A DNA stretch of 64,000 nucleotides, taken from positions 7,870 through 71,869 of the forward strand of contig JAUXXD010000201.1 in NCBI GenBank assembly GCA_030681265.1. The letters are read 5' to 3'. Source of the DNA: Candidatus Didemnitutus sp. Its GTDB lineage: Bacteria; Verrucomicrobiota; Verrucomicrobiia; Opitutales; Opitutaceae. Every line of letters starts with the position of its first letter. The stretch's first letter is position 1. A program made the position numbers and the translations under genes. This document shows positions 7,294-11,444 of this stretch, in pieces. The notes under the pieces were generated by a model. That model did no database searches. It was not told the origin of the DNA and saw only the letters and a program-made list of their open reading frames with translations.

Positions 7294-7324
7294 GGTCGCG
7301 TGAAAGGGTGCGGTGGCCGGACAC

Positions 7325-7349
7325 AAAAAAGCCCGCGCGAACGCGGGCT
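7325..7349 (-). terminator. Rho-independent terminator of the PEP-CTERM gene
   Basis: Minus strand AGCCCGCG-TTCG-CGCGGGCT followed by a T run. Confidence 0.85.
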
Positions 7350-7374
7350 GAAACTTTTGCTCGGGCGACGCGAT

Positions 7375-8175
7375 TTACGCGGCGTGCTTTTGGCGGCGGC
7401 GGTGCGCGATCACACCGACGAGCGCCAACGCACCGAAGATCGCGGCGTAGGTGGACGGCTCGGGGATGGCGGTGTAGGAAAGCGAAAAATCATCGATAGC
7501 AAGTCCATGGTCGGTGCCGGAATGATCAACGTCACTAAAACGAATGGCGAGATACTGGCCGCTGGTGAGGGTAATGCTCGAAACATCCAATGATAAGGAG
7601 GTGCGATTGGCCGAGAGGTTGCCATTCAGTGCCCCCGCGCTTCCTCCAGTGATTGGGCTGGTGAAGGTTAGCCCATTTAGTTGGGTCCAACCGGTGTCAA
7701 TGTTCGGAGTAAACGAGGTAATGTTCGAGGAACTGAGCTGATACCAAACGGTTATTGATTGCGCGGCGGCAGCGCTATTGCGCCATTGCTCGCCGACGTA
7801 ACTTAGGGTGCCCAGTGTGGTGGTTCCGGCTGCGTTATTCTGAAAGGTAACTCCCCACGCGAAGTGGCCGGCAGCAGCGTTGCCAGATCCAAGACTACCC
7901 AAAGCACGGTCGGATGCGGAGGTAGATCCATAGCTGTAGAGATTCCCCCCGGTGCCGCTGCCGGTATCTGCTGCGATTGTCGTGCCGGTGCCGCTGCGCT
8001 GAGCATACCAATTGGCGAGCGTGGAATTGTCAGTCCAAGTGGCACTAGAGGAAGAGATCAGGGTGTCGAAATTTTGAGTATAAGTTCCGCTGGCGGTGAT
8101 TGAAACCTGCCCGAAACCGACGTGGGCAAGCAGGGAGAATGCGGCGACGGAGGCAAAGAGGCGGAGGCTTTTCAT
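7375..8175 (-). CDS. PEP-CTERM sorting domain protein
   Basis: Likely start MKSLRLFASVAAFSLLAHVGFG (signal-like); ends IPEPSTYAAIFGALALVGVIAHRRRQKHAA (PEP motif, TM helix, basic tail). Confidence 0.93.
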   Translation of the reverse strand: MKSLRLFASVAAFSLLAHVGFGQVSITASGTYTQNFDTLISSSSATWTDNSTLANWYAQRSGTGTTIAADTGSGTGGNLYSYGSTSASDRALGSLGSGNAAAGHFAWGVTFQNNAAGTTTLGTLSYVGEQWRNSAAAAQSITVWYQLSSSNITSFTPNIDTGWTQLNGLTFTSPITGGSAGALNGNLSANRTSLSLDVSSITLTSGQYLAIRFSDVDHSGTDHGLAIDDFSLSYTAIPEPSTYAAIFGALALVGVIAHRRRQKHAA

Positions 8176-8217
8176 GGGGAGGTAGGCCAAGAGAAATAGC
8201 CGGGTGAATCGGTGGAG

Positions 8218-8240
8218 CAAGCCATAAACCGCTCAAGTTG
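8218..8240 (-). promoter_or_regulatory. Candidate shared upstream motif CAACTTGAGC-N8-GCTTG
   Basis: Same bipartite motif with identical spacing at 11494-11516; AACTTGAG core also at 3585-3592. Confidence 0.45.
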
Positions 8241-8274
8241 GCCGGAAGTGTGCCGATGGGCGGTGGCCGCGCAC

Positions 8275-8323: not shown

Positions 8324-10234
8324 TCAGGCGGCGCGTTTTTGGCGGCGGCGGTGCGCGATCACACCGACGAGTGCCAACGCACCGAAGAGCGCGGCGTAGG
8401 TGGACGGCTCGGGGATGATCGAGAGATTGCCCGTGCTCTGCGAGAAGCTCAGCACTTGCGAGCCACTGGTGAGCGACCAGACGCCGCTGTTGTTGGTGAA
8501 CGTGCCGACGTAGCTACCGGTGGCGGCGATGGACGAGAAGGCGCCCGCGCTACCGCTGCCGGAGAGGGCGAAGAGGCTGAGCACGTTGCCGTCGGCGATG
8601 GTGTTGCCAAAATTCAAATTGAAGGCGCCGCCGTAGGTAAGGAGGCCGGACGTGATATTGATGCCGTCGTAGGTGGTGCCGCGGGTGGTGCCGTTGATTT
8701 CGAAGTTGGTGATGCTGTCGCTGTCGAGGGTGAGGCCGTTACTGAATGTGAGGATGCCGGGGCTGTTGCCCGGAGCGAGGATACCGCCGCTTTGGATGGT
8801 GGTCGCGCCGCCGATCGTGCCGCTGCCGGAGAGTGTGCCGCCGGAAGCGACGGTCACGGAGCTGTTCGCATGGGTGGAGCCGTTGACGATCAGTGTGCCC
8901 TCGTTGATGGTCGTGGTGCCGGAATAGGTGTTGTTGCCGGAGAGCGTGGCGGTGCCGGCAGTGGATTTGATCAAACCGGCGGAGCCGGCGAGGATGGCCG
9001 AGGCGGAACCGGAACGCGCGTCGTAGTTGCCGCTGTTCTTGGTGAAGGTGCCGTTGGTGAGCGTGCCGCCGTTGAGGACGATTGCACCGCTGCGGGTGAG
9101 GGAGAGGCCGCCGAGGTTGAGCGTGCCACCGTTAATATTGACGGCAGTGCCGGCAGAATGGCCGAGCGTGCCGCTGCCGGAGAGGAGCATGGTGCCGGAG
9201 TTGACGGTGGTGTTGCCCTGATAGGTGTTGACGTTGGTGAGGGTGAGGGTGCCGGTGCCGGAGTAGGCGAGGCTTTGGTTGCCGGTCAGGTTGGTTTGCT
9301 TCACGGCGCCGTTGATCACCACGTTGCCGCCGCCGCTGAAGGTGAGGGTGCGGTTGGTCTCGGTGGTGGCATTGATGTCGATATCGCCGCCGATAGTCAG
9401 CGTGCTGGTGGAGACCGTGATGTTGCGGCTGGCGTTCATCGAGACTGCGCCAGTGCCGAGGTTGATGCTGTTGGCACCTGTGAAGGAAAAATTGGCGTTA
9501 AAGGACAGCGGATTATTATTCACAAAGGTCAGGGGCGCGCCACTGGTGTTTTCGACCGTCGCACCGAGACCCGAAACCAGAAAGATTCCCGTGCCCATGG
9601 CGGAACCTTGGCCGAGGCGGACGGTGGCACCGGCACCACTGATAGTTGTGTTGCCGGTGTAGGTATTGTTGCCGTTAAGGGTCAGCACGCCTGTGCCGGA
9701 GAAGGTTAAATTGCCGTTGCTGCCGGCAAAGCTGTTGCGAATGACACTGTTGATCGTCGTGTTGCCCGCGCCGGCAATCGTCAGGGTGCGGTTGGTGGCA
9801 CCGGTGCCGTTGAGGTCGAGAATGGCTCCGTTCATCTGGAGCAAACCACCCGCGGCAGTAGTCCAACTCGAACTCGTGCTTTGGTTGATATTGAGGGAGA
9901 GAGTTTGGGTGGCAGTGCCGAGATTATTAATGCCGTTGGCACCAAGAGTGAGCGTGCCCGCGCCACCGATGTTGTAGGAGCTGGCATCGGCGGAGAACGT
10001 CAGCAGGCCCTGGCTGCGAGCGGCGGCGAGGTTGGGATTGACGACCGAGCCGGAGGCTAAACCGAAGGTGGCATTGCCAGTGGTGGTGCTGCTCGCGGGG
10101 GCGGTGCCGCCGACCCAGTTTGCGCCGGTGGCATAGTCGGTGGCGGTATTGCCCCAGGAAATTGATTGGGCGGAGAGGCTGAGGACCGTGAGTGACGCCA
10201 GAGCGGTGGCGAGGAGGAAACGGGTAGGTTTCAT
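8324..10234 (-). CDS. PEP-CTERM protein with autotransporter-associated beta-strand repeats
   Basis: Likely start MKPTRFLLATALASLTVLSLSA; repeats such as LIKSTAGTATLSGNNTYSGTTTINEGTL; ends IPEPSTYAALFGALALVGVIAHRRRQKRAA. Confidence 0.93.
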   Translation of the reverse strand: MKPTRFLLATALASLTVLSLSAQSISWGNTATDYATGANWVGGTAPASSTTTGNATFGLASGSVVNPNLAAARSQGLLTFSADASSYNIGGAGTLTLGANGINNLGTATQTLSLNINQSTSSSWTTAAGGLLQMNGAILDLNGTGATNRTLTIAGAGNTTINSVIRNSFAGSNGNLTFSGTGVLTLNGNNTYTGNTTISGAGATVRLGQGSAMGTGIFLVSGLGATVENTSGAPLTFVNNNPLSFNANFSFTGANSINLGTGAVSMNASRNITVSTSTLTIGGDIDINATTETNRTLTFSGGGNVVINGAVKQTNLTGNQSLAYSGTGTLTLTNVNTYQGNTTVNSGTMLLSGSGTLGHSAGTAVNINGGTLNLGGLSLTRSGAIVLNGGTLTNGTFTKNSGNYDARSGSASAILAGSAGLIKSTAGTATLSGNNTYSGTTTINEGTLIVNGSTHANSSVTVASGGTLSGSGTIGGATTIQSGGILAPGNSPGILTFSNGLTLDSDSITNFEINGTTRGTTYDGINITSGLLTYGGAFNLNFGNTIADGNVLSLFALSGSGSAGAFSSIAATGSYVGTFTNNSGVWSLTSGSQVLSFSQSTGNLSIIPEPSTYAALFGALALVGVIAHRRRQKRAA

Positions 10235-10442
10235 GAGGAGCAAAAAAGCGAGCGAGGTGGGGAGAGGTGAACCGGCGGACGGACAGTGGGGAAAATCCTC
10301 TGAACAACCAGACAAATTCTGATAATTATTTGGAATGTCCGACGGTGCCGGACGAGAGTGAAAAAACGTCCGGCAATTCCCGACAATTTGGACTCAAATG
10401 AGGGGGGCGACGGGACAAGCGCAGGAAAAGTAAGCGCGCAGA

Positions 10443-10613
10443 CGAGAAATTCAGAGGCCACCACAAAACATACGAAGCAAACGAAAGGGGTTGGCTTGGC
10501 GGAACAGCAGATTCCGAAGGTAGGTTGCGCGCTCGCCGCGCAACGGGGTGCGGCCAGCGCGCAACCTACACCTGCAGAACCTCTGTGTCCTCCGTGTCTC
10601 CGTGGTTCAATTT
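10443..10613. repeat. Composite 9-mer array + REP element (third copy)
   Basis: GAAATTCAGAGGCCACCACAAAACATACGAAGCAAACGAAAG; GTAGG...CCTAC palindrome 10520-10569; CTCCGTGTCTCCGTGGTTCAA right arm. Confidence 0.8.
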
Positions 10614-10645
10614 GATGGGGGTGAAGCCGCTCGGAATCCGGGCAC

Positions 10646-10670
10646 AAAAAAGCCCGCGCGCACGCGGGCT
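10646..10670 (-). terminator. Rho-independent terminator
   Basis: Identical to the hairpin at 8275-8299. Confidence 0.85.
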
Positions 10671-10694
10671 GAAAGAGTGAGCGGGTGACGCGAC

Positions 10695-11444
10695 TCAGGC
10701 GGCGCGTTTTTGGCGGCGGCGGTGCGCGATCACACCGACGAGTGCCAACGCACCGAAGAGCGCGGCGTAGGTGGACGGCTCGGGGATGGCGGTGACGATG
10801 ATATTGTCGATCACGAGTGCGGGGGCGGCTGCTCCGCCGCCCTGACGAAGATTCACACTGTTAATGAGCGTGGGTTCAGCGGTCGCCGAGTTCCAAGTAT
10901 GGACGTGATACGGCGAAGCGAGTCCGTTGACCGTCAGGGTAATCGTGTCGTTCAAAGTTCCGGCGACGAAATTCCACACGGCGGTGATGGTGTAGTTGTT
11001 ATTGAGGCTGAGCACCTCGGTGCCATAGGTAATCGTGCCACTCGAAATTGCCATTAGGCCGAGTTGATAACCACCGGTAGCGGTGCGCGCGTAAATACGG
11101 CTGTAGAAGGTGGACGTATTCGCCATGTCGCCGAGATGCAGGAAATAGTCCCCCGCTCCCACGGCAGACAGATTGATCTGGGCCGAGAGCGAGAGCGAGT
11201 TGCCCGAGGCCGGCTCGACGTTGGTGAATTGGAGTCGGACATCCTGTCCGGTGTTGGCCATGGGCACCGTGCCGCTGGACACAGTAATTGGATTCACGGT
11301 TGAGGTGCCGGTGATGACCCAACCGCCTTGGCCGATCAGGCCGGCGTTGGTGTAGGAATTGAAATTCTCATTCACCAAAGTTTGCGCGGCGGCGGTGGCA
11401 GAGAAAACAAGAGCGGCGACAACAGGCAGGAGGTAACGTTTCAT
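10695..11444 (-). CDS. PEP-CTERM sorting domain protein
   Basis: Likely start MKRYLLPVVAALVFSATAAA; ends IPEPSTYAALFGALALVGVIAHRRRQKRAA. Confidence 0.93.
   Translation of the reverse strand: MKRYLLPVVAALVFSATAAAQTLVNENFNSYTNAGLIGQGGWVITGTSTVNPITVSSGTVPMANTGQDVRLQFTNVEPASGNSLSLSAQINLSAVGAGDYFLHLGDMANTSTFYSRIYARTATGGYQLGLMAISSGTITYGTEVLSLNNNYTITAVWNFVAGTLNDTITLTVNGLASPYHVHTWNSATAEPTLINSVNLRQGGGAAAPALVIDNIIVTAIPEPSTYAALFGALALVGVIAHRRRQKRAA

Follow-up and report, generated by a model that had tools for sequence, protein, structure and literature searches.

Probable concerted evolution of a sorting-tail and terminator segment in a tandem PEP-CTERM gene array of Candidatus Didemnitutus

Three tandem genes and their common 3' segment

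The stretch of DNA analysed here (the window) comprises 64,000 nucleotides of contig JAUXXD010000201.1 of Candidatus Didemnitutus sp. (Opitutaceae; assembly GCA_030681265.1, contig positions 7,870 to 71,869). It lies on the largest contig of a short-read metagenome-assembled genome (MAG) of 3.56 Mb, 220 contigs and 61% GC. The SdhA protein, with 88% aa identity to MAGs labelled Candidatus Didemnitutus, Lacunisphaera and Opitutaceae, places the genome in Opitutaceae (Verrucomicrobiota). Downstream of a tRNA-Pro gene, the minus strand carries a tandem array of three complete genes, C, B and A in that order, each of which ends in a PEP-CTERM sorting tail (Table 1). The three genes share a 151-nt module that runs from the tail codons through the stop codon and a spacer into a terminator, and we consider it likely, with a probability of about 0.8, that this segment has undergone concerted evolution by repeated gene conversion between the neighbouring genes.

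The tails of A, B and C read IPEPSTYAA[IL]FGALALVGVIAHRRRQK[HR]AA before the stop codon, with a PEP motif, a hydrophobic helix and a basic cluster (RRRQK), and a six-frame search with PF07589 scored them at 23.2-24.7 bits against a cut-off of 20.7. TIGR02595 (cut-off 16) matched the C tail at 24.2 bits and the A tail at 22.7 bits, and AlphaFold2 (AF2) models rendered the PEP-CTERM tail as a helix. Sec-type signal peptides are present at the start of the three genes (MKSLRLFASVAAFSLLAHVGFGQ, MKPTRFLLATALASLTVLSLSAQ, MKRYLLPVVAALVFSATAAAQ), and the same genome holds about 27-30 PEP-CTERM genes together with four exosortase homologues (PF09721, 106-161 bits). A, B and C are separately terminated genes for predicted exosortase-sorted surface proteins. 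The AF2 model of C (54 homologues; predicted local distance difference test, pLDDT, of 90) resembles legume lectins and the calreticulin lectin domain at a template modelling (TM) value of ~0.5, and that of A (pLDDT 91) resembles carbohydrate-binding modules (CBM4/22/61) and the gingipain adhesin domain; B is matched by PF12951 (E=3e-15), TIGR02601 and TIGR02595. A homologue search identified P0002 as an orthologue of C (82% aa identity), and P0062 is a syntenic orthologue of A (67% aa identity).

Table 1. Features of the array and its surroundings, in window coordinates
Feature	Positions	Strand	Description
Gene D	1-3547 (C102:7379-11416)	minus	1345-aa open reading frame, 3' end left of the window; A-like N-terminal domain, PATR repeats, AHRRRQ tail
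Membrane protein gene	3830-5860	minus	676 aa, multi-pass
TPR gene	5857-6750	minus	
REP-like composite element	6831-7030; 7117-7294; 10433-10615; 11848-11897 (partial)		copies 71-74% alike
Module copy A	7318-7468	minus	tail coding sequence 7375-7467, spacer 7350-7374 (1-nt indel), stem-loop 7330-7349, T-run 7321-7329
Gene A	7375-8175	minus	open reading frame, 266 aa: signal peptide, CBM/galactose-binding-like beta-sandwich body, PEP-CTERM tail
B-to-A intergenic region	8176-8266	minus	CAACTTGAGC motif and leader up to the ATG of A; kept in contig L134 before a different body
10-mer CAACTTGAGC	8231-8240; 11507-11516	minus	55-62 nt upstream of the A and C start codons
Module copy B	8267-8417	minus	tail coding sequence 8324-8416, spacer 8300-8323, stem-loop 8280-8299, T-run 8271-8279
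Gene B	8324-10234	minus	636 aa: PATR (autotransporter-type beta-helix) repeats, PEP-CTERM tail
Module copy C	10638-10788	minus	tail coding sequence 10695-10787, spacer 10671-10694, stem-loop 10651-10670, T-run 10642-10650
Gene C	10695-11444	minus	open reading frame, 249 aa: signal peptide, ConA-like lectin jelly-roll body, PEP-CTERM tail
tRNA-Pro(TGG)	11619-11695	minus	upstream array boundary; adjoins the array also in contigs L132 and L137

The original prediction held that 8271-8417 and 10642-10788 match at 145 of 147 positions and that a more diverged third copy lies near 7322-7473. A direct count gave the same figure, with mismatches at 8309 and 8312 and a longest exact run of 105 nt (8313-8417), and a repeat search recovered a family of three 151-nt copies, copy A being ~88% alike. 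Over the full 151 nt, B and C are identical at 148 positions (98.0%), and A is 87.5% identical to B and 88.8% to C, with one 1-nt indel in each of these two alignments. The module is made up of 93 nt of coding sequence (30 terminal codons plus the stop), a spacer of 24-25 nt and an intrinsic terminator. Synonymous and non-coding sites had been said to be conserved while the upstream domains differ, and this is what we observed: B and C agree at 93/93 coding and 55/58 non-coding positions, leaving three non-coding differences, and the bodies are unalignable. The coding part of A differs from that of B and C at 6 of 93 positions (three synonymous changes, the stop codon and two amino-acid changes), its spacer has diverged and its loop carries one change; copy A is older or partly converted. 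The edges of the module are sharp, the likeness ending at the I-P-E-P codons on one side and ~3 nt past the T-run on the other. In all three copies the terminator has the form AGCCCGCG-T[GT]CG-CGCGGGCT followed by TTTTTTGTG, that is, an 8-bp GC stem, a 4-nt loop and a T6 run, and the folded 8-bp hairpins have free energies of -19 to -23.5 kcal/mol, as expected of a predicted Rho-independent terminator.

False identity might also arise if the assembler had collapsed or mis-threaded a repeat, and a short-read MAG in 220 contigs with an exact repeat of 105 nt invites that suspicion. The copies, however, differ at specific positions, each stands in frame with a complete body, and the third is clearly distinct; moreover, relatives that were assembled independently show the same architecture, some of them as near-complete genomes in 2-7 contigs. 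We regard an assembly artefact as very improbable.

No further copy of the full module was found in the 3.56-Mb genome or in 40 related species genomes, and a search for a 5' module common to A, B and C yielded only a 10-nt motif shared by A and C in the upstream regions and signal peptides. Three candidate identities for the segment were rejected. A known RNA element in the 3' untranslated region (3'UTR) gave Rfam matches that were sub-threshold only and driven by the terminator. A mobile element of the miniature inverted-repeat transposable element type carrying the sorting tag is not indicated, there being three copies only, in one array, with ends (ATCCCCGAG... and ...TTTTTTGTG) that are not inverted repeats. 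A composite element resembling repetitive extragenic palindromic (REP) sequences is not part of the module either: it lies behind the A and C copies (71% alike) and not behind B, is absent after the counterpart of C in the related contig L132, and belongs to a low-copy dispersed family. This REP-like element begins 25-28 nt past the A and C terminators and is built of CACGAA-type repeats, a GC palindrome (TAGGTTGCGCGC...GCGCAACCTA) and a CTCCGTG arm; fragments of it also occur around a B-like gene on contig C178.

Tails and bodies within the genome and at an outgroup locus

Among the 435 pairs formed by the genome's 30 PEP-CTERM tails, nucleotide identity had a median of 0.59 and a 95th percentile of 0.71, compared with 1.00, 0.94 and 0.94 for the three pairs within the trio; identity of the 3' flanks was 0.80-0.90 in the trio versus a median of 0.10. 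The five highest tail identities were exactly those of the five physically adjacent same-strand pairs. The original prediction had called for such a comparison of tails with bodies, and the trio tails fall far outside the distribution, with bodies that cannot be aligned. Likeness is confined to the tails in two further arrays of this genome as well.

The description of the three genes as unrelated is correct as far as A, B and C themselves are concerned. A deep profile-profile comparison of A and C aligned only the last strand and the tail; neither shallow or deep profiles nor a sequence search of the PDB revealed a remote relationship between the A and C bodies; and fold searches assigned A and C to different beta-sandwich groups, the Pfam match marking B as a beta-helix protein. 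It fails outside the trio, since A is homologous to the N-terminal domain of gene D (32% aa) and B is homologous to the repeats of D and to two genes on other contigs. The tail of D (...AHRRRQRRTALKA) is 77% identical to the module at the nucleotide level, and its 3'UTR is unrelated. The short genes of the array resemble separated modules of long genes such as D, or else the long genes resemble fusions of short ones.

The relatives of B allowed body and tail to be traced separately. The last 183 residues of the B body are 80% identical to those of the C178 gene and 64% to those of a gene on C208, and neither gene shares the tail or 3'UTR of B; in the DNA, B and the C178 gene are ~80% identical up to the membrane helix and then diverge over the basic cluster and 3'UTR. 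By its body B belongs with these two genes, and by its tail and 3'UTR with C, so that body and tail are incongruent. A 6-nt deletion lies in B exactly at the 5' edge of the module and is absent from the orthologue B' (described below) and from the paralogues K178 and Q208. The borders of the module are mosaic: the 7 nt upstream of IPEP are common to A and C only, the core is common to B and C, and the 10 nt after the T-run (CGGCCACCGC) are common to A and B and not found in C.

An outgroup was provided by L132, a 4.1-kb metagenomic contig from Logan that was found via P0002; the arrays within the GTDB genus were rejected for this purpose as too divergent (A and C 39-44% aa). L132 contains, in order, the 3' end of tRNA-Pro, a counterpart of C (C'), a gap of 146 nt and a counterpart of B (B', a 994-aa PATR gene at L132:1116-4100). 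Its bodies are ~82% identical in nucleotide sequence to C and B (82.5% for the last 640 nt of B'), and the gene order together with the 82% body identity argues that L132 is orthologous to the present locus and comes from a related lineage. The three contigs with B' all end inside or just past its tail. B and B' (636 and 994 aa) are alike only C-terminally, with 52% aa identity over 535 residues, so the N-terminal PATR repeat region appears to have been remodelled between the lineages.

Unlike the tails of B and C, those of L132 are distinct from each other, C' ending in ...ALGAVAWRRRQQKRAA and B' in ...ALVGVIAHRRRQKRAA. Over the 93 nt of the tail, B and C differ at no position (0/93), whereas B differs from B' at 12/93, C from C' at 23/93, and B' from C' at 22/93; the paralogous tails are thus more alike within the genome than they are to their orthologues. 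These counts show that the C and B tails were already different before the lineages split. Third-codon-position identity was 0.68 for the C body across lineages versus 1.00 for the B and C tails, and at five synonymous sites A, B and C share one state and B' shares another with P0057, a gene on a further contig of a relative, L134. The last five codons and the stop of B and C (AAA CGC GCC GCC TGA) match C', and those of A (AAG CAC GCC GCG TAA) match B'. The module of B and C is a chimera of a B-type 5' end and a C-type 3' end.

These comparisons bear directly on a rival history in which whole genes were duplicated in tandem and their bodies then diverged quickly, with tail and terminator kept constant by purifying selection on the protein and the hairpin. 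The genes are indeed tandem and on the same strand, the tails are functionally constrained, and A and C are both beta-sandwiches. Such a history is nonetheless difficult to reconcile with 0 synonymous differences in 30 codons and 2 differences in an unconstrained spacer next to unalignable bodies, or with the beta-helix of B. In addition, the orthologues C' and B' carry different tails. Provided that L132 is orthologous, the outgroup comparison and the chimeric and mosaic signature exclude whole-gene duplication with differential selection, and we give it almost no weight.

Repeated gene conversion and its alternatives

What we observe directly is identity at neutral sites, incongruence of body and tail, synonymous states shared lineage-wide and mosaic borders. 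Gene conversion had been offered as an explanation in the original prediction, and it is strongly supported by the orthologous locus, the synonymous identity, the lineage-wide fixed sites and the mosaic borders. In the mechanism that we propose, RecA-type non-reciprocal homologous recombination between direct repeats ~1-2.4 kb apart would overwrite one copy with another; we infer both the enzymology and the direction. An exact run of 105 nt is well over the usual minimal pairing length. The sharp edges of the module would arise because a conversion tract cannot extend into non-homologous bodies and flanks. At least two events would have occurred since the split from the nearest sampled relative. 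In the first, a B-type segment from PEP to RRRQ would have been joined to a C-type end (KRAA, the stop codon and the start of the 3'UTR), and in the second this chimera would have been copied between genes, making B and C identical; A would have been homogenised over its central part, at an earlier time. A probable consequence is that the products of all three genes are recognised by exosortase in the same way and their transcripts end alike, and another is that the tails form a patch of homology where bodies may be gained, lost or replaced, as has apparently happened among relatives.

A single graft without ongoing homogenisation must also be considered. Here one partial duplication or illegitimate recombination would have placed tail and terminator behind three bodies, and the similarity would simply reflect the age of the event. 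Sharp edges, a 6-nt deletion in B exactly at the 5' edge, and the gain by C of a terminator that C' does not have are all in keeping with a graft. The three copies, however, show three levels of divergence and three border patterns, the module of B and C is a chimera of B-type and C-type sequence, synonymous states are fixed lineage-wide across paralogues, and analogous mosaics occur in several independent arrays. Since divergence levels, border patterns, the chimera and the mosaics elsewhere require more than one event, we consider a single graft unlikely.

Several points weigh against repeated conversion as a full account. The evidence is comparative, and no conversion event or polymorphism was seen directly: metagenome scans with a degenerate 41-mer covering the tail end, stop and spacer and with the 32-nt terminator, and exact-protein look-ups of A and C, returned no strain-level material. 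In a MAG of 220 contigs, how segments are ordered across the 105-nt exact repeat depends on the assembler, even if each of the two bodies must in any case have a tail at its end. Donor and sequence of events are deduced from a single outgroup, a metagenomic contig of 4.1 kb. In that outgroup C' has no module-type terminator and the DNA downstream of it cannot be aligned with 10235-10694, so C must have gained non-coding DNA by a longer replacement or in an earlier event, and short-tract conversion alone does not explain this gain. Finally, constraint at the protein level keeps tails of the same subfamily at ~72-76% nucleotide identity, and part of the similarity of A is therefore not due to conversion.

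Among described systems, the nearest counterpart is found in the babA/babB and homA/homB genes of Helicobacter pylori, whose 3' segments evolve in concert (Pride & Blaser 2002, as summarised in PMC3960876). According to that summary, only the 3' segment is homogenised by intragenomic recombination there, as at the present locus, the rest of each gene has its own history, and chimeric genes arise. The bab and hom paralogues, as summarised, are homologous over their full length and located at dispersed loci, whereas the genes studied here have unrelated folds, are in tandem, and share a 151-nt tract that includes the stop codon, 3'UTR and terminator. The mechanism is not new, being ordinary gene conversion as known from bab/hom and other surface-protein families; the example is new and well resolved.

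Haft et al. (2006; PMC1569441) described species-specific clades of PEP-CTERM domains with rapid turnover, mostly in single-gene operons, and interpreted the clades at the protein level as rapid paralogous expansion. The genes of the array conform to their PEP-CTERM/exosortase system in having the PEP motif, membrane helix, basic cluster and signal peptides, in a genome with four exosortase homologues. Beyond that description, we find identity at the DNA level that includes non-coding DNA, incongruence of bodies and tails, and probable conversion; our literature search returned no paper joining PEP-CTERM with gene conversion. PEP-CTERM proteins are among the fastest-turnover gene sets of environmental bacteria, and the locus offers a case at the level of single bases in which the sorting signal and terminator of neighbouring genes probably evolve together and the lectin-like bodies joined to them are unrelated. 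It would follow that a tree built from PEP-CTERM tails is no guide to the history of the genes, that short-read assemblies break or mis-join at these tails and such arrays are systematically fragmented, and that natural populations are predicted, from direct repeats of 105-151 nt, to contain variants with surface-protein genes deleted or duplicated.

Bodies and tails in related genomes

The array content downstream of tRNA-Pro varies among relatives. Contig L134, which carries P0057, begins inside a C'-type tail, continues through a module-type terminator, and then aligns with window positions 8407-8215 across the intergenic region up to ATGAAA. P0057 itself is a 284-aa gene with a tail 90% identical to that of A in nucleotide sequence and a body that has no match anywhere in the present genome and no similarity to A. 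One leader and tail pair thus flanks different bodies in two lineages. On L137, an NCBI assembly, sdh, LysM and tRNA-Pro genes are followed by the A orthologue alone. A syntenic array was also compared among three species genomes, with three genes in G013 (L131, C4:141694-144715) and two each in G002 (L129, C12) and G041 (L130, C12). Its flanks are 83-89% identical, the likeness is lost in the bodies, and it resumes exactly at the S-A-V-P-E-P codons. The third body of G013 is bracketed by two ~250-nt copies of tail, terminator and ~150 nt of downstream DNA, and the genus contains no homologue of it above 35% aa. In a G002 gene (G002_g1) compared with its orthologue, identity was 91% in the body, 94% in the PEP-helix part, 64% in the basic part, 27% in the spacer and 89% in the terminator, which delimits an internal tract. 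In the array of G008, the body of the second gene groups with genes of other species, and its tail end and 3'UTR are near-identical to those of its neighbour, the first gene. We take these cases as moderately interesting evidence that the tail may also coincide with the edge of body turnover among relatives.

The original prediction had further suggested that the tails serve as anchors for recombination. This receives support, less strong than that for conversion, from the L134 leader and tail around another body and from the bodies in G013, G002 and G041 that differ up to the PEP codons. Tentatively, and with rather more doubt than confidence, one could envisage that tails and promoter-leaders act as homology arms and that recombination between them exchanges the glycan-binding surface domains of Opitutaceae arrays, with bodies being inserted, deleted or replaced and conversion keeping the arms able to recombine. 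If so, the species-specific PEP-CTERM clades noted in 2006 would reflect concerted evolution and not recent expansion.

A stronger version would make the constant tail and the promoter-leader a selected handle for frequent swapping of lectin-like domains, of the pilE/pilS or bab type. In the fliC flagellin genes and in Neisseria pilE/pilS, which have a conserved 3' repeat, conserved ends give the homology for replacing the exposed part. A dedicated variation system of this sort could account for the terminator, leader and tail that flank, in L134, a body absent here, for the replacement of bodies in G013, G002 and G041, where the flanks and tails on either side are conserved, for the variable array content after tRNA-Pro, and for the breaks of public contigs inside tails. 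Yet no gene of the array lacks a start codon, a signal peptide or a terminator, and since every gene is complete in these respects there are no silent cassettes, unlike in pilE/pilS, nor is there a sign of high-frequency switching. In addition, the conserved end is here a predicted cleaved sorting signal and not a structural part of the mature protein. No recombinase family or special sequence was found nearby, the neighbours being an STT3-like membrane protein, TPR, LysM, tRNA-Pro and sdh genes; the differences lie between species-level lineages and not between strains; and A, B and C have no 5' module in common. We consider a dedicated variation system quite improbable, and a programmed or rapid switching system is unsupported.

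The public contigs with these genes (the Logan contigs L132, L133, L134 and L140) all start or end inside a PEP-CTERM tail or no more than ~12 nt past one. Such ends would be expected if the tails are repeated in those genomes too.

A few observations concern the surroundings of the array and the wider distribution of its bodies. The 10-mer ahead of A and C recurs in near-identical form (GAACTTGAGCGGTTTATG) ahead of P0057 (L134:161-170), and CAACTTGAGC may serve these surface-protein genes as a promoter element. Between the PEP-CTERM genes lies the gene for the multi-pass membrane protein, the end of which overlaps the start of the TPR gene. It had no Pfam match and a weak match to TIGR04154, the archaeosortase-A-associated STT3 oligosaccharyl transferase (E=1e-9, 37 bits, far under the cut-off). 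Bodies of the A and C types occur at 33-55% identity in other phyla, in proteins labelled Acidobacteriota, Bacteroidetes and Chloroflexi (P0087-P0140, P0044/P0049), where they are joined to PF13620, Calx-beta or the type IX secretion system (T9SS) sorting domain PF18962 instead of PEP-CTERM, so that one displayed domain is found with a lineage-specific sorting tag.

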